From: Candidatus Spongiisociaceae bacterium | Lineage (GTDB): Bacteria > Actinomycetota > Acidimicrobiia > Spongiisociales > Spongiisociaceae | Direction of reading: 5' to 3' | Length of the DNA: 64,000 nucleotides | Assembly: GCA_965219685.1 (NCBI GenBank) | Contig: CBDCOH010000002.1 | Coordinates: 3,680,001 to 3,744,000, forward strand | Part shown: positions 38,207 to 62,689 of the stretch, piece by piece | How positions within the stretch are numbered: position 1 is the stretch's first letter | Layout of the letters: each line of letters starts with the position of its first letter | The notes under the pieces: generated by a model | Told to the model about the DNA's origin: nothing | The model's input: the letters and a program-made list of their open reading frames with translations, nothing else | The model's database searches: none | Position numbers and translations under genes: made by a program

Positions 38207-38394
38207 ATAGTATCCGAGATTGCCCATCCAACCTCGAAGCTGAGGGAGTCCTGCGGCGGCTCCTTGGTCATCTTGGGGGGCAGAAGCCTGAACTTGGCAG
38301 CTCGCGGCCAGCCGGTCAACGGTGCAATTGGCAGGCTGTCCCGACAGTAGCGGGGTTATAGTTCGCGAGCGGCGGCGGTTCCGGGAGGTCGGCA

Positions 38395-39409: not shown

Positions 39410-40627
39410 ATGTTCGCGAGGGGTCTCCGCTGCACCAGGTGCCGGGCCGAGTGGGACCTCGGCCCCTACTTCCGGGGATGTCCTAGCTGCCATGACGCCC
39501 TCGAGGTGGTCTACAAGGAGGCCGCGGTCCGCTCGGTTGTCTCCTTGGAGATGTGGGCCCGGCGGCCCGCGTCGGTGTGGCGTTTCGCCGAACTCCTCCC
39601 CCTCCGGGCCGGTGGGGAGAGGGTGACGCTCGGTGAGGGCGGCACGCCGATGATCCAGCTTCCCAGGTCGGAGGAGAACCCGCTTCCGTTCCTCTACCTG
39701 CAGAACGAGACCGTGAACCCGACCTACGCATTCAAGGACCGGTTTCACGCGGTGTCGGTCTCGATGGCGCGCCAGTTCGGGTTCGACCGGGTCGTGTGCT
39801 CGACCACCGGGAACCACGGGATGAGCGCCGCGGCATACGCGGCCCGGGCCCGGATGAGGTGCGTCGTGCTGGCCGACCCCCGTGCTCCGATGGTGCAGCG
39901 GGACTGGATGCGCCTGTTCGGGGCCACGGTGATCGTGGAGATGAACCGCAAACCTCCCCTCCAGGCCTTCGTCGAGGAGCACGGCTGGTACCCGTCGACG
40001 TACATGACCCCGATGCCGGTCTCGACGCCGTACGGGGTGGAGGGGTACAAGACCATGGCCTACGAGGCGGTACTCGCCCTGGGGCGGGCACCGGATCACT
40101 ACCTGTTCCCGGTGGCGGCGGGCGACGGGCTGTACGGTCCGTGGAAGGGCTTCCAGGAGTTGTACCGGCTGGGTCTCATCAAGGCCCTTCCCCGCGTGCA
40201 CGGGGTGCAGGCGGCAGGCGCCAACCCGATCGTGGAGGCCATCGGGCAGGGCTTGGACGATGTCCCCGTGCACCCCGGTCCTGACACTGTGGCGCTCTCG
40301 ATCGCCGACGACACGGGAGGGCGGATCGCTCTCCAGGCAATCCGCGACTCGGGAGGCACCGCGGTCGAGGTCACCGACGCGGCGATCATCGAGGCCCTCC
40401 ATCGGGCGGCCAGGGTAGGGATGAGCCCCGAGCCGGCCTCGGCCGCCGCCCTGGCCGGGGCTTGGAGACTGGCCGAGCAAGGGATAATCGAGCCCGGAGA
40501 TTTCGTGGTGTGTTGCATAACGGGCGCAGGACCGAAGTGGCCAGGGGTAATGTCGGGTCGGGTTCCGGGCGAGGAACTCGTCAACCCGGGACGGGCCGCT
40601 CTGCACAGGCTGATGACGGGACGCTGA
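39410..40627 (+). CDS. Threonine synthase-like fold-type II PLP enzyme
   Basis: N-terminal CxxC..CxxC, TLGEGGTP, NPTYAFKDR, STTGNHG, EGYKT, EPASA and ITG. Confidence 0.85.
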   Translation: MFARGLRCTRCRAEWDLGPYFRGCPSCHDALEVVYKEAAVRSVVSLEMWARRPASVWRFAELLPLRAGGERVTLGEGGTPMIQLPRSEENPLPFLYLQNETVNPTYAFKDRFHAVSVSMARQFGFDRVVCSTTGNHGMSAAAYAARARMRCVVLADPRAPMVQRDWMRLFGATVIVEMNRKPPLQAFVEEHGWYPSTYMTPMPVSTPYGVEGYKTMAYEAVLALGRAPDHYLFPVAAGDGLYGPWKGFQELYRLGLIKALPRVHGVQAAGANPIVEAIGQGLDDVPVHPGPDTVALSIADDTGGRIALQAIRDSGGTAVEVTDAAIIEALHRAARVGMSPEPASAAALAGAWRLAEQGIIEPGDFVVCCITGAGPKWPGVMSGRVPGEELVNPGRAALHRLMTGR

Positions 40628-40651: not shown

Positions 40652-41461
40652 ATGACATCCACCGTTGAAGAGCTGATCACCTTCTTCCGTTCGGACTACT
40701 GGGCGGAGCACATCGAGTTGATGCACCGTCCCGACATAACCCTCCACGAGGTGATGCTGGCGACCAGCGTCCACCCCGTGACTCTCGAGTTCCTGTTCGA
40801 GCGCTACATCGCCGCGGCCGGCAAGAACGTCGTCAACGTGGGCCATGCTGTGGTCGGCAACAGAGGCCTGATCAAGTACTACACGTCGGACCGACCTTCG
40901 TTCTTCCTCATGTGGACCTACGGTGACGAGGCCCTGATCGGTCCGGACCCCGACGGCAGGACCGTCCTACTGGACGACGACGGTGAGCAGTCCTACCTGG
41001 ACGACATCGAGCCGAGAAGGATCTCCGACTCGGACCACGACGTCATCGACCGTTACTTCGCCTCCGAACACTGGGACGAGATGCTCGCAAAGTTTCGGGA
41101 TCCGGACATCGAGCACTTCCACGACTACCTGCTCACCGATATACACCCCTACGACTTGGCGGAGCGGTGCAACGCAGCGATAGCGGATGCCGGTTACGGA
41201 GAGGTCGAGCCGTACTACCTGGCGAGGCCGGACATCGGCTCGATGTGGATCGGTTACGCCCCGCCCGGCACCAAGTCGATGGAGTTCGTGGCGACCCACA
41301 CGCCGGGAGCCGTTTTGGAACCGCAGGAGTTGACCGCCGAGGACCGAGCCTACGGAGGTGACGGTTTCACTATCACCCAGATGAGGGAGTTCGTAGCCAA
41401 GGACCCCTACCGGCCGGTGACCCTCAGCGAAGCGCGAGCCGTCCTCGCAGAAGTCCTGTAG
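40652..41461 (+). CDS. Hypothetical two-repeat protein with HFH...HP motif
   Basis: GAGGAG RBS; full-length paralog of 53334-54149. Confidence 0.8.
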   Translation: MTSTVEELITFFRSDYWAEHIELMHRPDITLHEVMLATSVHPVTLEFLFERYIAAAGKNVVNVGHAVVGNRGLIKYYTSDRPSFFLMWTYGDEALIGPDPDGRTVLLDDDGEQSYLDDIEPRRISDSDHDVIDRYFASEHWDEMLAKFRDPDIEHFHDYLLTDIHPYDLAERCNAAIADAGYGEVEPYYLARPDIGSMWIGYAPPGTKSMEFVATHTPGAVLEPQELTAEDRAYGGDGFTITQMREFVAKDPYRPVTLSEARAVLAEVL

Positions 41462-41555
41462 GAGGGATTCACCCTCCGAGACACTTGTACATCGACGAAA
41501 TACAAAACCGTTGGTGGCCGTCTAGTGTCGGGGTAAGCATGGAGGGGAGGTTGCC

Positions 41556-42605
41556 GTGAGAGACGAGGGCAAGGTCATCACCGTCAATGGTCCGGTCGAG
41601 CCTGAACAGCTCGGGATCACCCTCATGCACGAGCACCTGCTGTTCACGTGCCTGATGTGGTTCCTGGAGGAGAGTCATCGTGGCCTGGGGTCGGATGCCT
41701 ACATGCCGGTGACCGCCCAGAACGCGGCCCTGCTCCGGGAGTTCCCGTATCACAACCGGGACAACCTGATCAACACCGACTGGTATCTCACCGCGATGGA
41801 GGTCAGACGTTTTAAGATGGCGCTGGGCCGCACTGTCGTGGACTCCTCGGACCTCGGCCTCGGCAGGGACGTGTGGGGGTTGCGCAAGATCGCCGATGAC
41901 GTCGGGGTCAACATCATCTCGGGTACCGGGTACTACGTCCACCACGCCCAGCCCTGGTACGTCGATTCGATGACCGAGCACGAGATGGCGGAGGGCATGA
42001 TCCGGGACATCACCGAGGGCGCGGACGGCACTGACATCCGCTGCGGGCTGATCGGGGAGATCGGGACATCGGATCCGGTCGCTCCGTCCGAGTGGAAGGC
42101 TTTGAGAGCCGCCGCCATCACCCACCACGCCACGGGTGCCGCGATCCAGATCCACGCGTTGCATGAACAGAGGCTGATGCCCGACATCCTGGACCTGCTG
42201 ATCGAGGAGATGGGAGTGCACCCCACCAGGGTGATCGCCGGTCACATGGACCTGACCACCGGCGACCGCGGCTACATGAAGCGGGTCGCTGAGTACGGCA
42301 CCTTCTTCGAACTCGACGGATTCGGCCACCCGTGCCCAACCGAAGGGGTGTACGTCACCGACGCTGACCGGGTCGGAGCCGTCGAGTGGATGATCTCCGA
42401 GGGTCGTGAGGACCAGTTGCTGTTCTCCCATGACATCGGGCTCAAGGCGAGGCTGTCCAGCTTCGGGGGGCCCGGCTACGACCACATCATGAACGTGATC
42501 ATCCCCGCGCTGAGCAGGGATGGCGTTCCCCGCGACGTCATCAACAAGATCCTGATCGAAAACCCGCGCCGGGTGCTGACCCTCGCCGAGGAGTCACCTG
42601 CCTGA
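41556..42605 (+). CDS. Phosphotriesterase-like amidohydrolase
   Basis: TLMHEH, GTGYY, GLIGEIG, QIH, GHMD and SHD; close paralog of 50610-51656. Confidence 0.9.
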   Translation: MRDEGKVITVNGPVEPEQLGITLMHEHLLFTCLMWFLEESHRGLGSDAYMPVTAQNAALLREFPYHNRDNLINTDWYLTAMEVRRFKMALGRTVVDSSDLGLGRDVWGLRKIADDVGVNIISGTGYYVHHAQPWYVDSMTEHEMAEGMIRDITEGADGTDIRCGLIGEIGTSDPVAPSEWKALRAAAITHHATGAAIQIHALHEQRLMPDILDLLIEEMGVHPTRVIAGHMDLTTGDRGYMKRVAEYGTFFELDGFGHPCPTEGVYVTDADRVGAVEWMISEGREDQLLFSHDIGLKARLSSFGGPGYDHIMNVIIPALSRDGVPRDVINKILIENPRRVLTLAEESPA

Positions 42606-48365: not shown

Positions 48366-49505
48366 ATGAACGCAGCATCGGCCGACCGCAATCTGACCAA
48401 CGACTTCACCCACCGGATCCAGCAGCTGAGGCGGAGTATGGAGGCGGCGAACGTCGACGCCCTGGCCGTCCTGAGCCCGAGCAACATCGAGTACCTGACG
48501 GGCATCGATCTGGTCGACTTCCAGCCCATGGAGACATCGCAGGGGATCGGCAAGCTCGTGTACATTGCCGAGGACCGCGCCGAGTTCATCTACTACGCGG
48601 TCACCAGCCCCGGGATCATGAACGCGGTCACCTGGCTGGACCACGTCGTGTACGACGAACCCGAGGACCCGGCCTCGGTCGTCGCACGGCGCGTTTCCCG
48701 AGATGTCCGGGCACTCGGAGTCGAAGGCGCATTCCTTCCGCACAACCTCTCCAAGCGTCTCGAAGACGCCCTCCCCTCTGTCGAACTCGTCGACGCGACC
48801 CGCCTGGTCTACGAGCAACGCATGGTCAAGTCGGCCGAGGAGGTGAACCGATCGCGGAGGTCGGCGCGTATCGCGGACCTCGCGATGGTTGACATCCTCC
48901 CCGGCATCTACGGGATGAGGGAAGTCGATGTCGCCTCGGCCGCGATGGAGTCCATGCTCGGCCACGGCGCCCACAACGTCGCCTATTCCCCGATCGTCTC
49001 CTCCGGGGAGAGGTTCGGGGGCATCACCTACGGCGCCACCGAGAGAAGGATCGGCAGGGGCGACTCGGTCATGATCGACCTGGGCGCCAAATACAAGGGC
49101 TACCGCTCCGACTTCACCCGCACCTCCCACTTCGGGCCGGCTCCGGCGCCATTGAGGAGGGTGCGGAGGGGGATGCTCGAGGCCAGGAAGGCGGCCCTGG
49201 GGGTGATGAAGGCCGGTGTGACCTTCGGGCTGGTGGACCGGACCATCCGCGACGTTCTCCAGGACAACGGTGTCGATCCCGGACACCTGATCCACGCCAG
49301 CCACGGCATCGGGATCGAGGTGGTCGAGATGCCGTGGCTGGCCGATCAGACACCGGATGTAGTCCTGCGGCCCAACGTGGTGATGACCCTGGAGTTGATA
49401 ATGGGCGTACCGGGCGTCGGGGCCTACACGATCGAAGATGTCCTGGTGATAACGGAAGAAGGAACCGAGGTCTTCACCGAATGCCCCGTTCCCTTCTACG
49501 AATGA
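48366..49505 (+). CDS. Xaa-Pro peptidase (M24)/creatinase-fold hydrolase
   Basis: SNIEYLTG, RMVKS, IDLG, SDFTRT, HGIG, TLE and IEDV metal ligands. Confidence 0.87.
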   Translation: MNAASADRNLTNDFTHRIQQLRRSMEAANVDALAVLSPSNIEYLTGIDLVDFQPMETSQGIGKLVYIAEDRAEFIYYAVTSPGIMNAVTWLDHVVYDEPEDPASVVARRVSRDVRALGVEGAFLPHNLSKRLEDALPSVELVDATRLVYEQRMVKSAEEVNRSRRSARIADLAMVDILPGIYGMREVDVASAAMESMLGHGAHNVAYSPIVSSGERFGGITYGATERRIGRGDSVMIDLGAKYKGYRSDFTRTSHFGPAPAPLRRVRRGMLEARKAALGVMKAGVTFGLVDRTIRDVLQDNGVDPGHLIHASHGIGIEVVEMPWLADQTPDVVLRPNVVMTLELIMGVPGVGAYTIEDVLVITEEGTEVFTECPVPFYE

Positions 49506-49520
49506 CGGCGCCGGTAGGAT

Positions 49521-50498
49521 ATGGGTATGGCAACCACCGTGATATCCCCTCCTTGTATGGCAGATGCCGAGAGAGCCGCCGAGGCCATCGCTGTCGAAGG
49601 GGTGTCGGAGATCCTGGTCTACGGGTCGGTGGCGCGGGGCGAGGCCGGTCCGGATAGCGATATCGACCTAGTGGCCATCCACGACGACCTGGACTACTCG
49701 ACCCGTGGTGACAGGTCGCACGATCTCAAGGAACTGGCCGGGTCCGCCGTCGCGCACAGGGTGTCCGTTTACGTCACCGACTGGCCGGAGTGGACCCATC
49801 GAGCCACCCGGGTGTCCACTTCTCTGGAGAGCGCCATCACCGCCGATGCCGTCACGCTATACCACCGGGACCCGAACGGGGTGCGCTGGGGGAAGGAGAT
49901 CGGTATGCCCACCACCAACGAGGAGGAGGCTGCCGGCCGGCTCCACAACGCCCGGCGCGCCCTCTTCGGCTTGAGCGATCATCTGATGACGAGCCCATCG
50001 GAAGGGAGCGCGCTCGAGGACCGTGATCCCGGTTACTACCTTTTTGCGATGAGGGACCGGATGTGCCGTCTGTGCGCCGACGCCCATATGGCGATGGAAA
50101 GCAGCCTCAAGGCCCTCATCCATCTTGGTGGTATGCGCCCTGCCCGTACCCACGACTTGGACGAGTTGCTGAGTGCCCTCCCCGCCGCACAGCGGGATCA
50201 CGTTCGGGGGATGTTCGTCGAGGTCAGCCCCGAGCAGGCGTCGAAGTGGCGGGAGGCGGGCGCATACGAGTACGCCGACTGGTCCTTGGACTACCTCGTA
50301 CCCCATGCCTACCACATGGCCGGCGCCGGCATCGCCGTATCCCGCTACGCCGCCGATCTTCTCTCCGGCGTAGAGGCCGCCCGCCTCATTAACAAGGTGG
50401 CGGTGAGAGCTGAGGATGTGCTCGACGGGTGGGATCTCTCCGCCGAAGACCCGTTCGAAGTGGTCGGTCAACCACCCCCGCCCGAGCTGTCCGAATAG
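49521..50498 (+). CDS. Fused minimal nucleotidyltransferase (MNT) plus HEPN protein
   Basis: YGSVARG..DSDIDL N-domain; HMAMESSLKAL...RTHDL HEPN C-domain. Confidence 0.8.
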   Translation: MGMATTVISPPCMADAERAAEAIAVEGVSEILVYGSVARGEAGPDSDIDLVAIHDDLDYSTRGDRSHDLKELAGSAVAHRVSVYVTDWPEWTHRATRVSTSLESAITADAVTLYHRDPNGVRWGKEIGMPTTNEEEAAGRLHNARRALFGLSDHLMTSPSEGSALEDRDPGYYLFAMRDRMCRLCADAHMAMESSLKALIHLGGMRPARTHDLDELLSALPAAQRDHVRGMFVEVSPEQASKWREAGAYEYADWSLDYLVPHAYHMAGAGIAVSRYAADLLSGVEAARLINKVAVRAEDVLDGWDLSAEDPFEVVGQPPPPELSE

Positions 50499-50609
50499 CC
50501 CCCGGGCCAATCGACTTCACCCCGACGTCCGGGGGGACGAAGCAGTTGCCATCGGGACAAGGTCCACCGGCACCGGTTAGTGTCGGCCGGACATGACGAC
50601 GGAGGATCA

Positions 50610-51656
50610 ATGAAGGACCTGGGCAAAGTCATCACGGTCAACGGTCCCATCGAGACCGACCAACTCGGGGTGACCCTCATGCACGAGCATCTGCTGTTCA
50701 CCTGCCTGATGTGGTTCCTGGAGGGAAACCACCGGGGCCTGGGTTCCGACTCCTACGTCCCGGTCACCCCCCAAAACGCAGCGCTGCTACGCGAGTTCCC
50801 TTACCGCAGCCGCGACAACCTGATCAACACGGACTGGCGGCTCAGCGCCCAGGAGATCAGGCGGTTCAAGATGGCCCTCGGCCGCAGCGTGGTCGACTCG
50901 TCGAACCTCGGTCTCGGAAGGGACGTGTGGGGGCTCCGCAACATCGCCGACGACGTCGGGATCAACATCATCTCGGGCACCGGGTACTACGTCGACCATG
51001 CCCATCCGTGGTACGTCGATTCGATGACCGCCGAGGAGTTGGCCGAGGGGATGATCGGTGACATCACCACCGGCGCCGACGGGACCGATATCCGCTGCGG
51101 GCTCATCGGGGAGATCGGCACCTCCGATCCCGTCACGCCCAACGAGTGGAAGGTGCTCGAGGCCTCCGCCATCACCCACCACGCCACCGGCGCGGCCATC
51201 CAGATCCATGCCCTCCACGAGCAGCGTCTGATGCCTTCGATCCTCGAGTTCCTGATCGACGACCACGGCGTGCATCCCAGCCGGGTAATCGCCGGACACC
51301 TAGACCTGTGCACGGATGACCGGCCCTATCTCGAGCAGATCGCCGCCTACGACACCTTCCTGGAACTGGACGACTGGGGCCACCCGTGCCCCACCGACGG
51401 CGTCTACGTGTCCGACGACGACCGGATGTCGACCGTTGAGTGGATGGTGGAGGACGGTTTGGGCGACAAGCTCCTGTTCTCGCACGACATCGGCCTCAAG
51501 GCCCGGTTGTCACACTTCGGCGGGCCCGGCTGGGACCACATCATGAACGTGATCCTCCCGTCGCTCAAGGACCGGGGCATGCAGGTCGACCCGCTCTACG
51601 GATTCGTGATCGACAACCCGGCCCGGGCTCTGGCCCTCGCCATGAAGACAGGATGA
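50610..51656 (+). CDS. Phosphotriesterase-like amidohydrolase (first gene of the BMC-linked run)
   Basis: TLMHEH, GLIGEIG, QIH, GHLD and SHD; GGAGG RBS. Confidence 0.9.
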   Translation: MKDLGKVITVNGPIETDQLGVTLMHEHLLFTCLMWFLEGNHRGLGSDSYVPVTPQNAALLREFPYRSRDNLINTDWRLSAQEIRRFKMALGRSVVDSSNLGLGRDVWGLRNIADDVGINIISGTGYYVDHAHPWYVDSMTAEELAEGMIGDITTGADGTDIRCGLIGEIGTSDPVTPNEWKVLEASAITHHATGAAIQIHALHEQRLMPSILEFLIDDHGVHPSRVIAGHLDLCTDDRPYLEQIAAYDTFLELDDWGHPCPTDGVYVSDDDRMSTVEWMVEDGLGDKLLFSHDIGLKARLSHFGGPGWDHIMNVILPSLKDRGMQVDPLYGFVIDNPARALALAMKTG

Positions 51657-51725
51657 CGCCCTCGGAGCGGGATCGGGGTTGCGGGCTGGCACCGCCGTGA
51701 CGGCGGCCGATAGGATGGGCCATTG

Positions 51726-52199
51726 ATGGACTACAGGGTTGCGAACACGATCGAGTTGCTGAACCGTGCCACCACCGCCATCTGGTACGAGATGCCGGAG
51801 GAGGTGCGCCGCCTGCGTACCCGGAGGGGGACCAAGGGCTACGGCTGGCCGATGATCATCTGCGCCGAAGAGAACACGAGGGCCTTCGCCGACGACATGG
51901 CCGTGTTGCGGAACGCCGGGCGGGACGCCTCGCTCGACTTGGAGACCCTCAAGCAGTTGGTGCGGATGTTCTGCGAGGCCCAGATGGGCATCCTCCACAA
52001 CTGGTACGGGCTGGACGACAGCGTCGATCTGGTCCGCAGTTCGCTCGACGCACTGGATCACATAGAGACGCATGGGGAATACCTCGCTTACACCCACGAG
52101 TTGAGCGTGTACCTGGGACGCCTTCACTGGTGGGCCGACACCCTGGTGCCGTGGGACGACATAAGTGCCAGATACGCGGATATGGACCTAGACCGCTAG
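51726..52199 (+). CDS. Hypothetical helical protein resembling the cucumopine synthase/McbB C-terminal domain
   Basis: IWYEMPEE, EENTR, YGL and YLGRLHWWADTLVPW pattern; similarity recalled from memory, not searched. Confidence 0.6.
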   Translation: MDYRVANTIELLNRATTAIWYEMPEEVRRLRTRRGTKGYGWPMIICAEENTRAFADDMAVLRNAGRDASLDLETLKQLVRMFCEAQMGILHNWYGLDDSVDLVRSSLDALDHIETHGEYLAYTHELSVYLGRLHWWADTLVPWDDISARYADMDLDR

Positions 52200-52219
52200 A
52201 CAGGAATCGAGGAGGAACG

Positions 52220-53278
52220 GTGGCCGAACGCGACGGTAACTACAGGGTCGGATGCGTGGGGGCGGGCTTCGCGGCCTCGGTATACCACCTGCCCGTCCAG
52301 CAGCGGGTCGAAGGCGTGGAGACGGTGGCGATCGCCGATCTCAACATGGACCTGGCCCGGCAGCGGGCGGACGAGTTCGGGATCCCGGAGGTCTACGGTC
52401 CGTTCGAGGACATGATCGAACAGGCCGACCTGGACATCGTCTCCGTCTGCGTGCCGCCCTTCCTCCACCTGGCGGTCACCAAGGCGGCGGCTGCCGCCGG
52501 CGTTCATGTCATCTGCGAGAAGCCGATGGCTGCCAGCCCCGAGGAGGTGGCCGAACTGGTCCAGGTGGTGGAGGACAGCGGGATCAGGTTCATGATCGCC
52601 GAGAACTTCTGGTGGTATCCCGACCTGATCGACGCCAAGGCGCGGATCGACGCCGGGCTGATCGGCGACCTCTTCCATGTGCGGGTCGAGGAGTTCATCA
52701 ACGACATCGACCCCACCTACCGGCGGGACCAGGAACGGTTCCTCATGTACGAGCAGGACGTCCACTACGTCGACGTGATCCGGCACCTGGTCGACGACGA
52801 TGTCGTACGGGTCCACGCCATGACCCGCCAGATCGCCACCCAGCAACTAGCCGGTGAGAATTTCGCCATGATCACCATGGAGTTCGCCAACGGAGTGATC
52901 GCTCGCATCGACGAATGCTGGGTCTCCGCCCGTGGCGACCAGTACGTGATGAGGATACGCATCGACGGCACGCTCGGGTCGATCTTCATCAACCAGCCCG
53001 ACCATCCGTACAGGCTCTACACGGACAAGCCCGGTCTGGAGGGCTGGCACTATCCCCCGACCGACACCAAGCCACCGGGCGGGCACGATGTCGGCTATGC
53101 GGCCCCTTGGCCGGCCGACGAACTCAGGGAAGGCACCGTGGGCTGCTACATGGCCTTCCTCGATTACCTGGAAAACGGTGTTCCTCCGGTCACGGTGGCA
53201 TCCGACAACGCCAAGACGATGGAAGTCGTGTTCGCTGCCTACGAGTCGGCCGAGACCCAGCAGGTGATCCACCTGTGA
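52220..53278 (+). CDS. Gfo/Idh/MocA-family NAD(P) oxidoreductase
   Basis: VGAG, VPPFLH, HVICEKP and HYVD; GAGGAGG RBS before GTG 52220. Confidence 0.9.
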   Translation: MAERDGNYRVGCVGAGFAASVYHLPVQQRVEGVETVAIADLNMDLARQRADEFGIPEVYGPFEDMIEQADLDIVSVCVPPFLHLAVTKAAAAAGVHVICEKPMAASPEEVAELVQVVEDSGIRFMIAENFWWYPDLIDAKARIDAGLIGDLFHVRVEEFINDIDPTYRRDQERFLMYEQDVHYVDVIRHLVDDDVVRVHAMTRQIATQQLAGENFAMITMEFANGVIARIDECWVSARGDQYVMRIRIDGTLGSIFINQPDHPYRLYTDKPGLEGWHYPPTDTKPPGGHDVGYAAPWPADELREGTVGCYMAFLDYLENGVPPVTVASDNAKTMEVVFAAYESAETQQVIHL

Positions 53279-53333
53279 CAGTTGCGGCGGGACCCGCCTC
53301 ACCCGGTCGGCCGGACTAGACCCGGCACACCTG

Positions 53334-54149
53334 ATGTCCACGGCGTTACGGGACGGGCTCCTCGACTTCTTCCGCTCGGATGCATGGGCAGACGCCCAGG
53401 CTCTGCTCGATGATCCGGGGGTGAGCTTCTTCGAGGCGAAGGTCACCACCGTGGTCCACCCGCTCTCGCTCGAGTTCCTCTTCGTGGAGTACCTGGACCG
53501 TATAGGCCGCCGCGTGCGCAACGTCGGCCACGCGTTCGTCGGGGAATGGGGATGGATCAAGATCTACCCGGAGACCCGGCCGGTTCTCAACGTCGTGTGG
53601 CGCTACGACGATTCGGCGGTGATCGCCGCCCACCACGAGGACTTCCTGGACGTGTGGACCGACGAGGGGGAGCGCGACTACCTGGCTGATGTCGGGCCGA
53701 GAAGGGCCACAGCGGCGGACCGGGAGGGCATCCTCTCCTACATAGCGTCCGACCACTGGCAGCAGGTCCTGGACTGGTACGCCGACCACGAGACCGAGCA
53801 CTTCCACACCTACCTCCATACCGACCTGCACCCCCACGACCTGGCGCCATTCCTGATCGACAGCCTGGCGCAGCGTGGCTTCGAGTTGGGGGTGGCGCCC
53901 TTCTTCCTGGCCCGGCCCGATCTCGGGCTGATGTGGATCGGGCTGGCGCCGGACGGCATGACCTCCCAGGAGGTGGCCTGCATCCACACCCCAGGGGCGC
54001 TCATCGAGCCCAAGGAACTCACCGACCAGGACCGGGAGTACGGTGGCGATCCGTGGACCGTGGCCGACTTCCGCGCCCGCGTTGTCCAGGACCCGTACGA
54101 GGTTCTGACGCTCTCCGAGGCAAGGGCGATAGTCGATGAACTGCTCTGA
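53334..54149 (+). CDS. Hypothetical two-repeat protein with HFH...HPH motif
   Basis: Full-length paralog of 40652-41461. Confidence 0.8.
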   Translation: MSTALRDGLLDFFRSDAWADAQALLDDPGVSFFEAKVTTVVHPLSLEFLFVEYLDRIGRRVRNVGHAFVGEWGWIKIYPETRPVLNVVWRYDDSAVIAAHHEDFLDVWTDEGERDYLADVGPRRATAADREGILSYIASDHWQQVLDWYADHETEHFHTYLHTDLHPHDLAPFLIDSLAQRGFELGVAPFFLARPDLGLMWIGLAPDGMTSQEVACIHTPGALIEPKELTDQDREYGGDPWTVADFRARVVQDPYEVLTLSEARAIVDELL

Positions 54150-54161
54150 GGTGAGGGCGCC

Positions 54162-55955
54162 ATGAGACGCTTCGTGACCACCGAGGACATCCGGGAGTTG
54201 GCCGAGGTCGGCGAGTTCGAGTTCATGATGCGGGAGGGGACGGTCCTGACCGATGCGGCCCTTGACGAGGCGCACCGCCTAGGCGTGCGTTTGGTGGAGG
54301 GATCCAGCTTGGCCGCTCCCCGGGCCGCCACCGGTGGCCGGCCCGCTTCCCGCCCGTCCCGGGTCGCGCCTCCGTCGCCCGCCCGCTCGTCGCGGGTCCC
54401 GGCCCGCGATGCTTCGCCGGCCCCGGGAACGAAAACGGCTACCTCTGCACAGCCTCGGTTCGAGGGACTTCCGGACCCCGCCCGGATGCACCCGAAGCTC
54501 CTGGTCGACGGTGAGTTCCGGGATGCCACCGGTGGGGCTACCAACCGTTCGGTCGATCCCGCCACGAGGGAGACCATCGTCCAGGTGGCGTCGGCAGCCC
54601 CCGACGACATCGACGCAGCGGTCCGGGCCGCCCGGCGGGCCTTCCGCGACTGGCGGGTACGCGACCCCGCCGAGCGCGCCGATCTCCTGCTCAAGGTCGC
54701 GGAACGGATCGAGCAGGAGCACGAGTTCCTGGCCAAGGTCGAGAGCCAGGATGTGGGGCGGCCGATAAGGGAGACCACCCTGATCGACCTTCCGGCATCC
54801 TGGGATCCCTTCCGGTTCTTCCAGGGCTTGGTGCGCGCCATCGACGGGAGGGTGCTGGCGCTGCCCCAGGACTCGCTCGACTACGTGCGCAAGGAGCCGA
54901 TGGGGGTCGTGGGCATGATCATCCCCTGGAACTTCCCCCTGCACATCGCCTGCCGCAAGTCGGCCGCAGCACTCGCGGCGGGGAACACCGTAGTTCTCAA
55001 GCCACCGGAGTTGGCGCCGCTGTCCTGCCTGGAGCTGGGGCGGATCTGCCTGGAGGCCGGCCTCCCACCCGGCGTATTCAACGTGGTGCCGGGCGCCGGC
55101 GAGGTGGCGGGACAGGCCCTGGTCGAGCACCGGGGGGTGGACAAGATCGCCTTCACGGGATCGACGGTGGTCGGCCGCTCCGTGATGCGCGGATCGGCGG
55201 CGACGATCAAGAGGGTGTCCCTCGAGTTGGGCGGCAAGTCACCGTCGATCGTCTTCGCGGACGCCGACTTGGACCGGGCGGTGAGCGGCGCCCTGTTCGG
55301 CATCTACCTCGCCCAGGGGCAGGTGTGCTCCGCCGGATCGAGGATCCTCGTGGAGCGGTCGATATACGACGACTTCGTGGAGCGCTTCGCGGCCAGGGCG
55401 GCGTCCATCCGGATCGGGCTGCCGTGGCGGTGGCGGACACAGCTCGGCCCGCTGGTGAACGAGCGCCAGATGGAGCGGGTCTACGAGTACGTGGACATAG
55501 GCAGGGCCGAGGGGGCGACCGTGTTGGGGGGCGGTACTCCGCCCGACGACCCCGAACTCGCCCGGGGTAACTTCATCAGGCCCACTGCCTTCGTTAACGT
55601 CGAGCCCGGGTTCCGCATCGCGCAGGAGGAGATCTTCGGTCCGGTCGTGGTCGTCATGCCGTTCAGCGGTGAGGAGGAGGCTGTCCGGCTTGCCAACGAC
55701 GTCCGCTACGGTTTGGCGGCCGGAATCTGGACCACCGATGTCGGTAGGGCGCATAGAGTGGCCCGGGACCTGGAGGCCGGCTCCATCTGGGTAAACCACT
55801 TCGGTGTCTACCCCAGCGAGGCGCCCTTCGGTGGCTACAAGGAGAGCGGCACTGGCCACGACCTGGGCCTGGAGTCGCTGCACGAGTACATGGAGACAAA
55901 GAACGTGCACGTCAACATCGGGCGTGGATTCAACGACTGGTACGAGGACAACTGA
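54162..55955 (+). CDS. Non-acylating aldehyde dehydrogenase with about 105-aa N-terminal extension
   Basis: IPWNFP, FTGS, LELGGKSP, GQVCSAGSR, EEIFGPV and PFGGYKESG; a 47-aa module plus Pro/Ala/Ser/Arg linker precede the ALDH fold. Confidence 0.93.
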   Translation: MRRFVTTEDIRELAEVGEFEFMMREGTVLTDAALDEAHRLGVRLVEGSSLAAPRAATGGRPASRPSRVAPPSPARSSRVPARDASPAPGTKTATSAQPRFEGLPDPARMHPKLLVDGEFRDATGGATNRSVDPATRETIVQVASAAPDDIDAAVRAARRAFRDWRVRDPAERADLLLKVAERIEQEHEFLAKVESQDVGRPIRETTLIDLPASWDPFRFFQGLVRAIDGRVLALPQDSLDYVRKEPMGVVGMIIPWNFPLHIACRKSAAALAAGNTVVLKPPELAPLSCLELGRICLEAGLPPGVFNVVPGAGEVAGQALVEHRGVDKIAFTGSTVVGRSVMRGSAATIKRVSLELGGKSPSIVFADADLDRAVSGALFGIYLAQGQVCSAGSRILVERSIYDDFVERFAARAASIRIGLPWRWRTQLGPLVNERQMERVYEYVDIGRAEGATVLGGGTPPDDPELARGNFIRPTAFVNVEPGFRIAQEEIFGPVVVVMPFSGEEEAVRLANDVRYGLAAGIWTTDVGRAHRVARDLEAGSIWVNHFGVYPSEAPFGGYKESGTGHDLGLESLHEYMETKNVHVNIGRGFNDWYEDN

Positions 55956-55971
55956 CCGGGAGGTTCGGATC

Positions 55972-56250
55972 ATGGAAGGTGCTCTTGGGTTGATCGAGAC
56001 CCGCGGGCTGGTAGGCGCCATAGAGGCGTCCGACGCGATGGCCAAGGCTGCCCGCGTCGAGATCATCGGCCGCGACGTGATCGGAGGCGGTTACGTCACG
56101 GTCATGGTGCAGGGCGAGGTCGGCGCGGTGAAGTCGGCGGTGGACGTCGGCGCATCGGCTGCCAAGAAGGTGGGGGATCTCGTCGCAGCCCATCTGATTC
56201 CCAAGCCCCATGAGGACTTGGGGAAGGTGAGCGCTCTGCTCGACGGCTGA
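55972..56250 (+). CDS. BMC-H hexameric shell protein (PduA/EutM/CcmK family)
   Basis: ALGLIETRG...DAMAKAA...IGGG...GEVGAV..AV...IPKPH; GGAGG RBS. Confidence 0.96.
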   Translation: MEGALGLIETRGLVGAIEASDAMAKAARVEIIGRDVIGGGYVTVMVQGEVGAVKSAVDVGASAAKKVGDLVAAHLIPKPHEDLGKVSALLDG

Positions 56251-56328
56251 CCCCAAGGACTTGCCCGACCGGAATGCGGGGCTGGGCAGCCGGGAGGCAG
56301 TGGGCAGAGCGAGAGCGAGGAGACATAG

Positions 56329-56595
56329 ATGTTGTTGTGCCGTGTTACGGGAAGCACCGTCGCGACGGTGCGCGCCGGCGGTGTGGGAGGCACCAGGCTG
56401 CTGGTCGTGCGGCCGGAGGGCGGCGACCCCGCCTCGTCATTCGTGGCGGTGGACGTCGTAGGAGCCGGATCCGGCGACCTGGTGCTGGTCGCCCAGGGGA
56501 GCGCGGCGAGGATCCCCGACGCCGCCGCGTCGGTACCGACCGATGCGACCGTCGTCGGCATCGTCGACGAAGCAAGCCACGACCCGGGAGGCTGA
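56329..56595 (+). CDS. BMC-P pentameric vertex protein (EutN/CcmL family)
   Basis: M...RVTG..VAT...LLVV...VAVDVVGAG.G..VLV..GSAAR...DATVVGIVD. Confidence 0.93.
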   Translation: MLLCRVTGSTVATVRAGGVGGTRLLVVRPEGGDPASSFVAVDVVGAGSGDLVLVAQGSAARIPDAAASVPTDATVVGIVDEASHDPGG

Positions 56596-56596
56596 G

Positions 56597-57226
56597 GTGA
56601 CGAGTCCAGGGCAATCGGGTGGCGGGAGCGGCAACGCCCTGCGCGCCTATGTGTACGTCGACAAGATGCAGCCGACCTGGGCGGCCTATGTGGGAAGGGA
56701 CGACCGGGGAGGCTCCTCATTGGAGGGGATGGCCCAGCTCTACGTGGAGGTGGCGCCGGCCACGCTGGTGTTCTCCCTGGCCAACGCCGCGCTGAAGAGC
56801 ACAGAGACTGCTTCCTCGTTGCTGGTTGCCGAGCGTCGGTACGGGACGCTCGAGCTCCATTCGGCCAACCCCGACGCGGTCCGCCAGGCCGGAACGATCA
56901 TCCTGGCGATGATCGGCAGCTCCTCGGCGCCTGGTATAGCGCCCTCGTCGGTGACCACCCGCATCGTCAACAACGTGACCGGAACCGAGGCCGGCCTGGT
57001 GAACCGGATGGGGGTCCGAGGCCGGCTCAGGAAAGGCGACGCCATGCTGGTCGTGGAGACGGAGCCCGCCGCCTACGTGGCCCTGGCCGCCAACGAGGTG
57101 GAGAAGCACACCTCGCTTCGCATGATCCTCGTACGGCTCCACGGGGCCAGCGGCCGCCTGATCCTCGCCGGGAGCGAAGCCGAGGTGGAGATAGGGCACC
57201 AGGTGGCCCTCGAGGCTCTCGGGTAG
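56597..57226 (+). CDS. BMC-T tandem shell protein (CcmP/CsoS1D-like permuted type)
   Basis: LRAYVYVDKMQPTWAAY, EVAP, ERRYGTLELHS, LVNR, ETEPAAY...AANEVEK and GASGRL..G. Confidence 0.88.
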   Translation: MTSPGQSGGGSGNALRAYVYVDKMQPTWAAYVGRDDRGGSSLEGMAQLYVEVAPATLVFSLANAALKSTETASSLLVAERRYGTLELHSANPDAVRQAGTIILAMIGSSSAPGIAPSSVTTRIVNNVTGTEAGLVNRMGVRGRLRKGDAMLVVETEPAAYVALAANEVEKHTSLRMILVRLHGASGRLILAGSEAEVEIGHQVALEALG

Positions 57227-57237
57227 GGGGAGGAGTC

Positions 57238-57780
57238 GTGCGCCAGATACTTACCACCGATGACATCCGGGCGGCAGTCCGCCGCGGCAAGACCGAGTTG
57301 GTGGTGGAGCCACCTACCGTGATCACCGCGGCCGCTCGGGACGAGGCCAACCTTGCCGGACTCCGGATCATCGAAGGACCCAAGGAACGCAGCTCAGACA
57401 TTGTCATCAAGGTGGCCGGCGAGCGGATCCGGGCCACCTTGCTCCTCGACGAAGCGCCTGTCACCGCGTCCGCCATCCGCGACCTGCTCCCCCTGTCGGG
57501 CACCGTCAACCATGCCCGCCTGGCCGGTGACGAGCTCATGTTCCCGATCCGCACCTACCTGGGTGCCGAGAACCAGTCCAAGGCACAGACGGCCGGCAAT
57601 ATCGCCTACTGGCCCGACCGGATGATCATCGCCATGTTCTACGGAGACACCGGAGGCGTGGGACTCACCAACGTCTTCGCCCAGGTGGTGCCCGAGGACA
57701 TGGACGCCTTCCGCCGGGCCGGCGACTTCGTCTGGAAGAACCAGGGCGTGGAGCTCCTGATAGAGCGTCACCGGGGTTAG
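57238..57780 (+). CDS. DUF3830/cyclophilin-like-fold protein with BMC-type N-terminal module
   Basis: APVT...LLPL...HARLAGDE...EN...GNIAY...IAMFYG; N-terminal 47 aa similar to the ALDH N-terminus. Confidence 0.75.
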   Translation: MRQILTTDDIRAAVRRGKTELVVEPPTVITAAARDEANLAGLRIIEGPKERSSDIVIKVAGERIRATLLLDEAPVTASAIRDLLPLSGTVNHARLAGDELMFPIRTYLGAENQSKAQTAGNIAYWPDRMIIAMFYGDTGGVGLTNVFAQVVPEDMDAFRRAGDFVWKNQGVELLIERHRG

Positions 57781-58030
57781 CGCCCTCATGGTCCGGTCGG
57801 CGCGCCTAAAACCGCCGGATGCCGATCCGGTCATGCGCAGAGTGAAGACCGGATGATGTCGACGGCGTATGGGCACTTCTATCCCGAAGACGGGATGCGG
57901 AACGAGTGCTACCGCCCCTTCCCGGCTGGGAAAACGAACGGCTGGATCGCGCTCACCATGGTGGCGGGCTCAACCGTCCTCGAGGAGCCCCGGGTGATGT
58001 CCTCGACGTGAAGCCAGGACTGGAGGGATC

Positions 58031-60481
58031 GTGAGGTCGCAGTACCGGGTGGTGGTGATCGGGGGCGGCGTGGTCGGTGCCAGTGTTCTGTATCACTTGG
58101 CGAAGCTGGGTTGGAGCGACGCGGCCATTGTGGAGCGCGAGGTGTTGACGGCCGGGTCGAGCTGGCACGCCGCCGGCGGTGTGCACACTCTCAACGCCGA
58201 TCCGAACATCGCGGCTCTGCAGGCGTACACGATCGATCTGCTATCGGAGATCGGGGAGGAGTCGGGCCTCGACGTGGGGATGCATATGACGGGTGGCATC
58301 TCGGTCGCTTCGGTGCCGGAGAGGTGGGAGTGGTTGCAGGCGGCGTATCGGGTGTTCCAGACGATGGGTATCGAGGACGTGCGGCTGATCGGTCCGGATG
58401 AGATCGAGGAGCGGTGTCCGATCATGAACGTCGCTGATGTGCTTGGGGGTCTGTGGGCGGATCGTGAGGGCTATATCGATCCGTCGGCGGTGGTCCATGC
58501 CTACGCCAAGGCTGCCCGGTTGCGTGGCGGCGAGGTGATCGAACACAACCGGGTGGTCGAGTTGCACCCACGCCGTGACGGGTCGTGGAAGGTGGTGACC
58601 GAGTTGGGAACCATCGTCGCGGAGCACGTTGTGAACGCCGCCGGGCTATGGGCCAAGCAGGTGGGGCGGATGGCGCGGCTGGAGCTTCCCGTCTCCCCGA
58701 TGCAGCATCACTATCTGGTCACCGAGGCGATCCCCGAACTCGCGGCGCTCAACTTCGAGGTGCCGATGATGATCGACCTGGAGGGGTACACCTACATGCG
58801 GCAGGAGCTCCATGGGGTGCTGGTCGGGATCTACGAGCGCGATTACCGGCACTGGAACATGGATGGTGCGCCGTGGGACTACGGCTTGGAGCTGATCCCA
58901 CCGGACGTGGATCGGATCTCGGGCGAGCTGTCGTTTGCGATGTCCCGCTACCCGGTCCTCGAGCGCACCGGTATCAGCCGCTGGGTGAACGGGGCGTTCA
59001 CGTTCTCACCGGACGGCAACCCCCTGGTGGGTCCGGTGCCCGGGTTGCGCAACTACTGGTCGGCGTGTGCGGTGATGGCCGGTTTCCTCCAGGGTGGCGG
59101 CGTGGGCAAGTCGCTGGCGGAGTGGATGATCGAAGGGGAGCCGGAGGAGGACATCTTCGCGATGGACGTGGCCCGTTTCGGGTCCTTCGCCCAGAATCGT
59201 GAGTACATCCGCCAGATGACCGGTCAGTTCTACTCGCGCCGGTTTGTGATCACCTACCCGAACGAGCAGCTGTGGGCGGGCCGTCCGCTGCGGATGGCCC
59301 CAGCGTACGATGCGATGACCGCGGCGGGGGCGCAATGGGGGTGCTCGTACGGTCTCGAGGTCCCGATCTACTTCGCCCCCAAGGGCTTCGTGGAGGTGCC
59401 GACGTTGCGCCGCTCCAACGCGTTCGACATCGTCGGCGAAGAGTGCCGGCGGGTGCGTTCCGGTGTGGGGATCCTCGACATTGCCGGGTTCTCCCGGTAC
59501 GAGGTCGCCGGTCCCGGCGCCGCGGCGTGGCTCGACCGGCTCTTCGCCGGCGCGCTGCCCGCACCGGGGCGGATCAAGCTGGCCCCGATGCTGGGCCACG
59601 ACGGCCGGCTCAAGGGAGACCTGACGTTGTTCAACTGGGGGGACGGCACCTGGTGGATCGTGGGCTCGTACTACCTGCGGGCCTGGCACATGCGCTGGTT
59701 CAACGACCACCTCGGCGACGGGGTGACGGTGCGTGATATCTCCGATGCAGTCGTCGGCTTCTCGCTCTCCGGGCCGGGTTCTCGCGAGCTGTTGCAACGG
59801 GTCACGCCGGATGACGTCTCAGCGGATGGCATGCGTTTCATGGCGTGTCGCCAGTTCGACATCGGTATGATCCGCGCCCGGGTGGGCCGGATCTCGGTCA
59901 CCGGAGAGCTCGGATACGAGATCCACTGCCCGGCCGCCGAGCACATCGCCCTGCGCCGCCTCCTTCTCGAGGCCGCCGACGGTCTCGATGCGATCGAGTA
60001 CGGCTACAACGCGCTGCTCTCGCTCAGGATCGAGAAGAGCTTCGGCGTCTGGTCGACCGAATTCCGCCAGGAGTACACCCCGGCCATGACCGGGTTGGAC
60101 CGATGGATCGACTGGTCCAAGGACGACTTCATCGGCTCGGGGGCGGCTCGCAGGGAGCGGGACAACGACAGCGCTACCAGGAGGCTGGTCACCCTCGAGG
60201 TGGACGCCACCGACGCGGACGCCACCGGGTACGAGCCGGTGTGGAACGGCCACCGACGGGTCGGCTACATCACCTCGGGCGACTACGGCCACACCACCGA
60301 CAAGAGCCTCGCCATGGCCCTCATTGACCGGGAACACACCGCAGAAGGAACCGAACTCACAACCCACATCGTCGGTGTCGAACGCCCAGTCCGAATAATC
60401 GCCGCCTCACCCTACGACCCGAACGGCACGGCGATGCGAACCGGCGTCCCGGCCGGCCCGGTCGGTCGGGCAAAGCCATGA
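58031..60481 (+). CDS. GcvT-family FAD oxidoreductase (dimethylglycine/sarcosine dehydrogenase-like)
   Basis: GGGVVG, GSSWHAAG, FTFSPDGNP, RISVTGELGYEI and SLRIEK. Confidence 0.92.
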   Translation: MRSQYRVVVIGGGVVGASVLYHLAKLGWSDAAIVEREVLTAGSSWHAAGGVHTLNADPNIAALQAYTIDLLSEIGEESGLDVGMHMTGGISVASVPERWEWLQAAYRVFQTMGIEDVRLIGPDEIEERCPIMNVADVLGGLWADREGYIDPSAVVHAYAKAARLRGGEVIEHNRVVELHPRRDGSWKVVTELGTIVAEHVVNAAGLWAKQVGRMARLELPVSPMQHHYLVTEAIPELAALNFEVPMMIDLEGYTYMRQELHGVLVGIYERDYRHWNMDGAPWDYGLELIPPDVDRISGELSFAMSRYPVLERTGISRWVNGAFTFSPDGNPLVGPVPGLRNYWSACAVMAGFLQGGGVGKSLAEWMIEGEPEEDIFAMDVARFGSFAQNREYIRQMTGQFYSRRFVITYPNEQLWAGRPLRMAPAYDAMTAAGAQWGCSYGLEVPIYFAPKGFVEVPTLRRSNAFDIVGEECRRVRSGVGILDIAGFSRYEVAGPGAAAWLDRLFAGALPAPGRIKLAPMLGHDGRLKGDLTLFNWGDGTWWIVGSYYLRAWHMRWFNDHLGDGVTVRDISDAVVGFSLSGPGSRELLQRVTPDDVSADGMRFMACRQFDIGMIRARVGRISVTGELGYEIHCPAAEHIALRRLLLEAADGLDAIEYGYNALLSLRIEKSFGVWSTEFRQEYTPAMTGLDRWIDWSKDDFIGSGAARRERDNDSATRRLVTLEVDATDADATGYEPVWNGHRRVGYITSGDYGHTTDKSLAMALIDREHTAEGTELTTHIVGVERPVRIIAASPYDPNGTAMRTGVPAGPVGRAKP

Positions 60482-62191: not shown

Positions 62192-62689
62192 TCAGACGGC
62201 GAAGATCCGCTTCGGGTTCTCCACCAGGATATCGTTCAACTGATCTTCGGTGACCCCGGCCTCGCGCAGCATCGGAACCACCTCGGTCAGAGGGTACACC
62301 CATCCCTTGCCGCCGTGCTCGGCGAAGTGCACCTTGAGACAGTGGTCGTGCGCAGTCATGACCTGCTTGCTGTAGCCGTCTGCGCACAACCGGGCGAGCG
62401 TCTCTACCCGCTCCTGGTCCGAGACCCAGTGGTCTCGTCCGAAGATGAGGTGCGACTCGTTCCACGGTGAGTCCCGGAGCGGCTCCTCGATGCTCGGACC
62501 CGGTCGGAACGGGCGTTCGGTCGTTACCGAAGCCTGTGTCCGTGGGGTATCGACCCGCCTGGGGTTGTCAGAGAGCAGCTTGTGCGTGAGCACGCTACCT
62601 GCCGGCGTGCGCGCCACGATGTCGGTGAACCTGCCGCCGCGATCGATCCAGAACCGCCGGCCAGCCAGTTCAGCATCCATGAATCGCAC
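62192..62689 (-). pseudogene. Chimeric remnant: oxoprolinase N-terminus fused to PTE C-terminus
   Basis: [15 protein letters not shown]...HKLLSDNP, then [29 protein letters not shown]...NPKRIFAV, closely matching the 36077 PTE end. Confidence 0.75.

Follow-up and report, generated by a model that had tools for sequence, protein, structure and literature searches.

What enzyme would supply the aldehyde in the bacterial microcompartment (BMC) that this stretch of DNA encodes? Many of the catalogued microcompartment types, according to the text of the survey by Sutter et al. 2021 (PMC8217296), possess an aldehyde dehydrogenase (AldDH) but no recognisable signature enzyme that generates the aldehyde. 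The stretch analysed here, hereafter the window, comprises 64,000 nucleotides of the genome of a Candidatus Spongiisociaceae bacterium (assembly GCA_965219685.1, contig CBDCOH010000002.1, positions 3,680,001 to 3,744,000). It holds a cassette of nine same-strand genes in which shell genes are clustered with enzymes. Two members of the cassette are considered in particular, both on the plus strand: a gene for a stand-alone helical-bundle protein of the Cucumopine_C family (51726..52199), and a gene for a cyclophilin-like/DUF3830 barrel protein (57238..57780), which closes the cassette. Seven genes and 5 kb lie between the two. The best overall explanation, to which we give a probability of roughly 0.55, is that the two proteins would form a two-subunit enzyme of the McbB/KslB fold that is tagged, encapsulated, and cleaves an adduct for the AldDH. 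The pair may thus be regarded as the best candidate for the core (signature) enzyme of the organelle.

Homology and pairing of the two genes

The preliminary description of this DNA had pointed to LLPLSGTVNHARLAGDEL, FAQVVPEDMDAFRRAGDFVWK and YGDTGGVG in the translation of 57238-57780 and to IWYEMPEE, EENTR and YLGRLHWW...PW in that of 51726-52199, and had likened the two proteins to the N-terminal cyclophilin-like domain and the C-terminal helical domain of McbB/cucumopine synthase. All of these strings occur in the translations, and the family assignments that it anticipated were recovered from Pfam. The helical protein matches Cucumopine_C (PF18631) with 46.9 bits (cut-off 27) over profile positions 3-138 of 141. 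The barrel protein matches DUF3830 (PF12903) with 48.1 bits (cut-off 26) over profile positions 2-134 of 143 and protein residues 56-168, as well as Cyclophil_like (PF04126, 36.3 bits) and PF18050 (26.6 bits). The PF12903 match exceeds the gathering cut-off and spans most of the profile, yet its score is an outlier with respect to canonical DUF3830 proteins, which reach 83-227 bits. Both open reading frames (ORFs) have the high third-position GC content typical of real genes (0.87 over 51714-52199). For the helical gene, the ATG at 51726 is the likelier start, whereas the ORF listing opens at the TTG at 51723.

Comparison with chains of the Protein Data Bank (PDB) places both proteins on McbB. 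In phmmer searches, McbB 3x27 is hit by both, at residues 185-333 by the helical protein (E 0.0018) and at residues 35-146 by the barrel protein (E 0.0087). Two profiles were also used, one built from 35 stand-alone helical proteins (A1) and the other from 17 barrel orthologues (A4). Profile A1 matches McbB 3x27 at residues 181-325 with an E-value of 4e-20, and KslB 9ns6 at residues 4-146, its N-terminal helical domain, with an E-value of 6e-10. Profile A4 matches residues 20-146 of McbB 3x27 with an E-value of 3e-5; its best PDB matches are 2nnz (4e-14) and 3kop (1e-11), and TM1367 is also among those ahead of McbB. The AlphaFold2 (AF2) model of the helical protein has a pLDDT of 97.5, and a Foldseek search with this model ranks McbB 3x27_A at the top (TMq 0.83, rmsd 2.2 Å), with KslB at TMq 0.74. 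Only McbB and KslB chains appear down to rank 24, and the next unrelated chain stands at rank 35 with an E-value of 0.48. The claimed likeness of 51726-52199 to the C-domain of McbB is therefore borne out by profile and by model alike. By these alignments, the two predicted proteins together tile the McbB chain.

McbB of Marinactinospora thermotolerans (PDB 3X27), a beta-carboline-forming Pictet-Spenglerase, also consists of a cyclophilin-like barrel, at its N-terminus, and a helical bundle, at its C-terminus, and it has the NHA motif of the barrel in common with the window protein. In contrast to the two genes of the window, however, McbB is a single chain that forms a homodimer. It is biosynthetic and has no microcompartment link, whereas the window pair lies in a BMC operon; the window barrel carries an extra N-terminal EutQ-like module, and the identity is only about 20%. 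KslB of Kitasatospora setae (PDB 9NS6, 9NST and 9K0A) likewise combines the two domains in a single chain, with the helical domain first. As described in PMC12012969, KslB condenses L-Trp with alpha-ketoglutarate or succinic semialdehyde and thus accepts an aldehyde as co-substrate. Its residues Arg256 and Lys264, which bind the carboxylates of keto acids, are not mappable on the window barrel, where the profile reaches an E-value of only 0.25 against KslB.

A further group of relatives is formed by the cucumopine and mikimopine synthases encoded by Ri plasmids of Agrobacterium rhizogenes, which make opines from His and alpha-ketoglutarate and are the namesake of PF18631. Their chemistry is of the Pictet-Spengler type according to PMC12012969. 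These synthases are fused and plant-expressed, unlike the two separate bacterial genes of the window, and since a tblastn search of the helical protein against 72,556 plasmids gave no match, their relation to it is remote. The best sequence matches of the barrel are stand-alone, so far uncharacterised DUF3830/cyclophilin-like proteins (3KOP, 2NNZ and TM1367, 1ZX8), of which 3KOP shares the GDTG motif.

The solved structures bear on the question of whether two separate proteins could make one enzyme. In KslB, as reported in PMC12012969, the helical domain supplies the active-site residues Phe89, Tyr92 and Asn93, of which Tyr92 belongs to the other subunit of the dimer and gates the loop of Glu274; the same source describes the two domains of McbB and KslB as lying in opposite order. 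The active site of the solved relatives thus uses both domains, and because the domain order is reversed in KslB, the covalent link between the domains is not fixed. In the A1 profile alignment, the Tyr92-Asn93 segment of KslB aligns with the conserved W94-Y95 of the helical protein. We infer from this architecture, and from the pairing described below, that the two proteins form a heteromer. A prediction of the complex from residues 50-180 of the barrel (A4) and the helical protein (A1) scored 0.01, 0.42 and 0.15 in three runs made without controls, against a mark of 0.32.

Conservation of the cassette was followed in related loci, which come from close relatives titled Acidimicrobiia or Candidatus Spongiisociaceae metagenome-assembled genomes. 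In all 11 related genome loci with enough flank, the nine genes are present in the same order with 71-98% protein identity, and a twelfth locus is a 3.4 kb contig that holds the first three cassette genes only. A metagenome search with a three-row alignment found two loci, L019 and L020. The contig L019 carries the complete cassette; the more distant L020 (68% identity) carries the phosphotriesterase-family gene, the helical gene and the Gfo/Idh/MocA gene of the cassette on 1.3 kb. Both genes of the pair are thus present in 12 of the 12 loci with enough flank (11 genome loci and L019), and the layout as separate genes with seven others between is identical in all 12.

Of 401 Actinomycetota genomes searched by profile, two carry the helical gene: the window genome and, outside this clade of sponge symbionts, a genome designated G565. 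In G565 a DUF3830-like gene lies immediately upstream of the helical gene and overlaps it (L018, 2179-3209). Within the class of G565, the helical gene was found in 11 of 301 genomes. Ten of these belong to one genus (10 of 72 sampled genomes), and in each the barrel gene is directly upstream and overlapping; in the eleventh, which is from another family (G896), barrel and helical domain are fused in a 400-aa frame in the McbB order (L021, 991-2190). Because the A4 profile includes the G565 barrel as a row, its scores in that genus are inflated, while the adjacency is independent of scores. Co-occurrence of the two proteins, which the preliminary description had made a touchstone of its proposal, is therefore observed in three arrangements: in the same cassette, adjacent, and fused. 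The lineages are few and related genomes are not independent, and the counts are given without a statistic. As a side observation, the G565 pair adjoins a carbamate kinase gene and a phosphotransferase system (PTS)/beta-glucosidase cluster.

The relationship is not symmetrical. PF12903 is found in 40 of the 401 genomes of the phylum, 38 of which have no helical (A1) match, and no helical gene was found within 1.5 kb at the 12 best-scoring canonical DUF3830 loci. The two genomes with a helical gene have the weakest DUF3830 scores, 44.7 bits (window) and 29.6 bits versus 83-227 for the rest. By these weak scores, the partnered barrels are a separate branch nearer McbB, so that "DUF3830" is an approximate label for the window gene.

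The helical protein has 115 representative relatives at an E-value of 1e-3 or below, of which 98 are shorter than 200 aa and 17 have at least 200 aa. A Pfam scan covered 25 of the 115, namely all 17 of at least 200 aa and eight shorter ones. Nine of the 25 have a cyclophilin-like/DUF3830 domain at the N-terminus with the helical match by phmmer in the C-terminal half, and Pfam itself lists Cucumopine_C in five of these nine barrel-helical fusions. Judging from these sequences, the two-gene state is a common arrangement. The "split" enzyme of the preliminary description is thus right in that two genes are involved; the stand-alone helical form, however, is that of the majority of relatives and not a local accident. 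Two relatives, P0026 and P0057 (343 and 264 aa), have a tandem double Cucumopine_C and no barrel domain, an architecture that is not among the solved structures.

The shared N-terminal module and the shell

The barrel gene is composed of two parts, an N-terminal EutQ-like module (57238-57381) and the barrel proper (about 57403-57741), which is the homologue of the McbB N-domain. The same module opens the AldDH gene (54162..55955, plus strand) at 54162-54305, where it is followed by a Pro/Ala/Ser-rich linker and the catalytic domain (PF00171, 573 bits, residues 124-582). The first 48 residues of the two proteins are 43% identical over 49 residues (E 3e-13), and the module is kept on both in 11 of 11 loci. 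A profile of 14 module copies, run against the six-frame translation of the genome, gives two significant matches only (99.7 and 92.8 bits), the next having an E-value of 0.05. The module belongs to no Pfam family and has no significant match in the PDB (best E 0.13). Against the NCBIfam model of EutQ, 13 of the 14 copies align with positions 1-47 (best E-value 2.2e-6), and the match is confined to positions 1-54 of its 233. The linker of the AldDH (residues about 50-123, 54306-54530) is long, rich in Pro, Ala, Ser and Arg, and probably disordered.

EutQ is described as the hub between shell and cargo in Eut microcompartments (PMC12487888). That study reports that residues 1-99 of Salmonella EutQ suffice to target GFP into Eut microcompartments and that helices H1 and H2 (deletion of residues 9-41) are the shell-binding part. 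By analogy, the module is probably a shell-targeting tag, with barrel and AldDH as tagged cargo. There are differences. EutQ has cargo-binding helices H3 and H4, which have no counterpart in the window module, as the match ends at model position 47; and neither the barrel nor the AldDH has a cupin or EutQ match in Pfam that would correspond to the C-terminal cupin of EutQ (PF06249, acetate kinase activity). Unlike in EutQ, the module here is fused directly to the enzymes, presumably as a cargo tag.

The shell would be built from three contiguous genes at 55969-57226 on the plus strand, so that all three shell classes are clustered with the enzymes. They encode a BMC-H hexamer protein (55969..56250; PF00936, 90.3 bits), a BMC-P pentamer or vertex protein (56329..56595; PF03319 EutN_CcmL, 79.7 bits), and a CcmP-like tandem-domain BMC-T protein (56597..57226). 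The last has no Pfam match and is recognised by NCBIfam CcmP (NF053796, E 5.9e-43, 147 bits, residues 3-197). Its start was read from the sequence as the GTG at 56597 behind GGGAGG, with the ATG at 56543 as an alternative. The genome holds one match each to PF18631, PF12903 and PF00936, all within this locus.

The proposed route into the shell is as follows. The 48-residue module would take barrel and AldDH into the compartment made by the three shell proteins, and the helical subunit, which is untagged, would enter bound to the barrel. We consider it likely that the two-subunit McbB-fold protein pair is cargo of this microcompartment.

Several polar residues of the barrel are invariant or nearly so (H92, R94, D98, E99, R105, E111, K115, D127 and R128). 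Barrel orthologues without the tag (P0134-P0137; 131-135 aa, 54-59% identity) keep the motifs NHARLAGDE, ENQSKAQ and WPDR. The retention of polar residues in the barrel, tagged or untagged, fits a catalytic or ligand-binding site, and the untagged orthologues suggest that the barrel does something beyond organising the shell.

Catalytic position, reaction and competing readings

In metabolosomes, the aldehyde is produced by the protein that shares the shell with the AldDH. Since the two tagged proteins of the window are an aldehyde consumer and one half of what is elsewhere an amine-carbonyl enzyme, the cleavage direction is the simplest reading. The barrel and the helical bundle, as the two subunits of a single enzyme of the McbB/KslB fold, would split an adduct of the Pictet-Spengler or opine type (formed from an arylethylamine or amino acid and a carbonyl compound) into the amine and an aldehyde. 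The AldDH, presumably CoA-independent, would then oxidise the aldehyde to the acid inside the shell and so pull the unfavourable cleavage forward. This aldehyde-releasing chemistry, taken by itself, is put forward tentatively and has less than an even chance of being right. Of the preliminary description, the two-part McbB-like enzyme has gained from the fold homology of both halves and from their co-occurrence; its chemistry, an aldehyde-amine condensation or the reverse ring-opening, is something we still only infer.

The position of the catalytic residue was located by profile alignment, which lays the family motif Y-G-x-T-E on Y-G-P-L-T-E of McbB, the Glu being residue 118 of the deposited chain. 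The first residues of 3x27 suggest a 21-residue tag, in which case residue 118 would be the native Glu97. The text on KslB (PMC12012969) has the catalytic Glu274 likewise preceded by a Thr, Thr273, consistent with the alignment.

A number of points weigh against the explanation favoured here, and a serious one lies at this very position. The barrel has Gly (in FYGDTGGVG) where McbB has Glu97, KslB Glu274 and Fcs1 Glu100, although in an alignment of about 20% identity a shift of one or two residues is possible. The loss of the acidic residue after the YG motif, suspected in the preliminary description, is thereby confirmed. The reports on the characterised enzymes state that KslB E274Q is dead (PMC12012969) and that all 19 substitutions of E100 in Fcs1 are dead (PMC10372676). 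The likeness of the module to EutQ is weak in absolute terms: it scores about 27 bits, where the equivalog cut-off is 193, and extends over the first 47 positions only. The helical subunit, the phosphotriesterase-family hydrolase, the Gfo/Idh/MocA protein and a 271-aa protein of the cassette have no visible tag, which leaves the contents of the shell uncertain. The pair is 5 kb apart with seven genes between, versus adjacent or fused elsewhere, and its co-occurrence rests on few independent lineages, namely the sponge-symbiont clade, one genus and one fused case. We know, moreover, of no enzyme-catalysed retro-Pictet-Spengler reaction. Because Gly stands in the place of an otherwise irreplaceable Glu, the window protein is not filed here as a Pictet-Spenglerase. 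As far as the alignments go, the window pair has the McbB fold and the two-part active-site architecture but lacks one defining residue.

The residue at this position varies within the family. The motif was found in 20 of the 22 related clusters searched (not in P0132 and P0133), with Gly in 12, Asp in two and Glu in six. Broken down by locus, Gly stands in the window and in ten other loci and Asp in L015; the motif pattern had no match in L005. More distant orthologues carry Glu at the catalytic position, and the G565 barrel keeps it (FDVCEPFG). An Asp stands two residues upstream in all 13 tagged proteins that lack the Glu (D-T-G or D-T-D), whereas in the three tagged ones that possess it this place is taken by Asn or Lys (N/K-T-E); the untagged P0135 has neither the Glu nor the upstream Asp. 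The pattern would fit a carboxylate moved two residues upstream. In its most specific form, the proposal would make the pair the first catabolic member of the Pictet-Spenglerase fold, a two-subunit encapsulated lyase acting on a host-derived tetrahydro-beta-carboline, tetrahydro-imidazopyridine or opine-like adduct, the uphill C-C/C-N cleavage being pulled by the co-encapsulated AldDH, with the carboxylate moved from the Glu to an Asp two residues upstream. That all of this should hold together is unlikely.

The fold could also be put to use in the synthetic direction, as in McbB, KslB and cucumopine synthase, where an amine (Trp, His or an arylethylamine) and an aldehyde or keto acid made in the shell would yield an alkaloid or opine, or where a toxic aldehyde would be trapped. 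Sponge symbionts are known producers of alkaloids, which counts for such a function. All characterised members of the fold condense, according to the accounts in PMC12012969 and PMC10372676. A co-tagged AldDH would, however, draw on the very aldehyde that condensation requires, the genes around the cassette are catabolic with no biosynthetic tailoring genes seen among them, and the Glu needed for condensation is Gly here; we therefore hold synthesis to be improbable. Loss of the catalytic Glu in the window clade also lends itself to a view in which the barrel is a non-catalytic, EutQ-like organiser that links shell and cargo and the helical protein is an adaptor. The match of the module to the N-terminus of EutQ, itself the shell-cargo hub of Eut microcompartments (as presented in PMC12487888), speaks for this. 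But the module is also carried by the AldDH, a genuine enzyme, and so behaves as a tag and not as a feature specific to a hub; the module-less barrels P0134-P0137 keep the polar motifs of the tagged ones; and the helices H3 and H4 with which EutQ binds cargo have no counterpart. In addition, the 16 kb that were read around the barrel-helix pair of G565 contain no shell genes; the remaining loci of that genus extend over only about 3.4 kb each. An organising role is accordingly quite unlikely.

The distance between the two genes raises the question of whether they work together at all. The barrel might be an encapsulated enzyme or binding protein that acts alone, as canonical stand-alone DUF3830 proteins would, while the helical protein has a separate cytosolic role with the phosphotriesterase-family hydrolase and the Gfo/Idh/MocA protein encoded on either side of it. 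The seven intervening genes, the untagged state of the helical protein, and the 38 of 40 PF12903 genomes without an A1 match can all be read in this way. Every examined genome with the helical gene nevertheless has a barrel in the same operon, adjacent or fused; the solved relatives build the active site from both domains (so described in PMC12012969); and the window barrel belongs to the weak-scoring DUF3830 branch that accompanies helical partners. Independent action is accordingly unlikely.

The pair provides a concrete, testable candidate for a signature enzyme: a two-subunit form of a fold otherwise known only from alkaloid and opine synthases made as single chains, bearing the same module as the AldDH. 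If the favoured reading of an encapsulated, adduct-cleaving pair is correct, it has several implications. Microcompartments would then handle amine-carbonyl adducts as well, perhaps alkaloids of the sponge or compounds resembling opines, and the many Cucumopine_C proteins that stand alone (of the 115 nearest relatives, 98 are shorter than 200 aa) would be subunits of heteromeric enzymes. The N-terminal shell-binding module of EutQ would also serve elsewhere as a transferable tag for cargo, a property useful in shell engineering. The occurrence of Glu, Asp and Gly at the catalytic position among members of a single orthologous group offers a natural experiment on how this enzyme class works. 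This Glu/Asp/Gly series, the adjacent and fused pairs outside the sponge clade, the asymmetry with respect to canonical DUF3830, and the uniqueness of the tag with its EutQ likeness are newly described here.

The other cassette genes and their surroundings

The cassette, which the phosphotriesterase and barrel genes bracket, begins with a gene for a phosphotriesterase-family (PTE) hydrolase of the amidohydrolase fold (50580..51656, plus strand; PF02126, 211.8 bits). The protein reaches 139 bits against the NCBIfam model for phosphotriesterase-related protein, under the equivalog cut-off, and is 83-95% identical across related loci. The helical gene is followed, again on the plus strand, by a gene for a Gfo/Idh/MocA-family NAD(P)-dependent oxidoreductase (52220..53278; PF01408, 93.9 bits, and C-terminal domains). 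Its best NCBIfam match is inositol 2-dehydrogenase (128.7 bits, under the cut-off), and its start was read from the sequence as the GTG at 52220 preceded by AGGAGG. PTE proteins are often lactonases. Speculatively, the PTE and Gfo/Idh/MocA proteins could process a cyclic or sugar-like moiety, either ahead of the encapsulated steps or following them.

The next gene (53334..54149, plus strand) encodes a conserved, internally duplicated protein of 271 aa from no known family, with no match in Pfam or NCBIfam. Its AF2 model has a pLDDT of 94.5, and Foldseek gives weak matches to glyoxalase, bleomycin and HPPD proteins (E 2.4e-4, TM 0.15-0.17); in the VIA comparison the best Z is 4.7, and the Atlas yielded no usable match. 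The modelled protein is possibly built of beta-alpha-beta-beta-beta modules like those of the vicinal oxygen chelate (VOC) proteins, and no fold is claimed. A paralogue with 46% identity lies at 40652-41461. The family, in which many His and Glu residues are invariant, was recovered from close relatives alone (26 clusters).

The best NCBIfam matches of the AldDH are betaine-aldehyde dehydrogenase (537.7 bits), HpaE (522.9 bits), StyD (phenylacetaldehyde dehydrogenase) and aminobutyraldehyde dehydrogenase, all under their equivalog cut-offs, and by these best family matches the enzyme would be of the CoA-independent class. No phosphotransacylase or alcohol dehydrogenase family was found among the nine cassette genes in Pfam or NCBIfam. 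With these two activities absent and an AldDH that matches CoA-independent families, the locus would represent a metabolosome with an incomplete core. In this it resembles the MIC types as given by Sutter et al. 2021 (PMC8217296), which likewise have shell genes and a pfam00171 AldDH without the usual phosphotransacylase and alcohol dehydrogenase. The ARO microcompartment of the same survey is actinobacterial and has an atypical AldDH related to semialdehyde dehydrogenases; as described there, however, that AldDH has no detectable targeting peptide, whereas the window AldDH is tagged, and ARO has ring-opening pfam02900 dioxygenases, whereas the window locus is without pfam02900. The terms PF12903, PF18631, PF02126 and "Acidimicrobi" are absent from the main text and seven supplementary files of PMC8217296, the locus diagrams of its Supplementary Data 2 not being covered. 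The cassette is thus likely to be absent from the 2021 catalogue. Among the publications searched, none links microcompartments with DUF3830, cucumopine, a Pictet-Spenglerase, or sponge-associated Acidimicrobiia.

The neighbourhood in the window is catabolic. Besides four PTE paralogues and two Amidohydro_2 proteins, it includes a hydantoinase/oxoprolinase, a hydrolase of the M24/creatinase-like kind, FAD oxidoreductases and an ABC importer, and genes for biosynthetic tailoring were not seen there. From its gene content, the whole window looks like an island for the degradation of nitrogenous cyclic compounds. One part of it, upstream of the cassette, is an oxoprolinase-like gene (31319-35161) in which hydantoinase A and B are fused over 1280 aa; after it come genes for an ABC ATPase, a dioxygenase of the PhyH family (38362-39345), and a pyridoxal-phosphate-dependent enzyme (39410-40627).

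One of the four PTE paralogues in the 64 kb is a C-terminal fragment (62192-62689). PTE genes adjoin a canonical glyoxalase/VOC gene (37107-37544) and the paralogue of the 271-aa protein at 40652-41461, and a third shares the operon with 53334-54149. A recurring pairing of PTE with VOC-like genes is suggested by these regions (36065-37544, 40652-42605 and 50580-54149).

A dimethylglycine-dehydrogenase-like gene downstream of the barrel (58031-60481) was considered as a further member of the cassette and rejected: its matches in related loci are only 27-29% identical and lie upstream of the cassette, with none downstream of the barrel. A scan of 49400-58200 for promoters and terminators gave nothing above shuffled expectation. 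The window, which lies on contig 2, has a GC content of 65%, and the genome comprises 4.4 Mb.

Just upstream of the cassette, at 49521-50498, lies a gene for a fused nucleotidyltransferase-HEPN protein, in which MntA/HepT-like toxin-antitoxin domains are joined in one chain. It has no match in L005, L008-L010, L012, L013 and L015, and is present in L004, L006, L007, L014 and L019.

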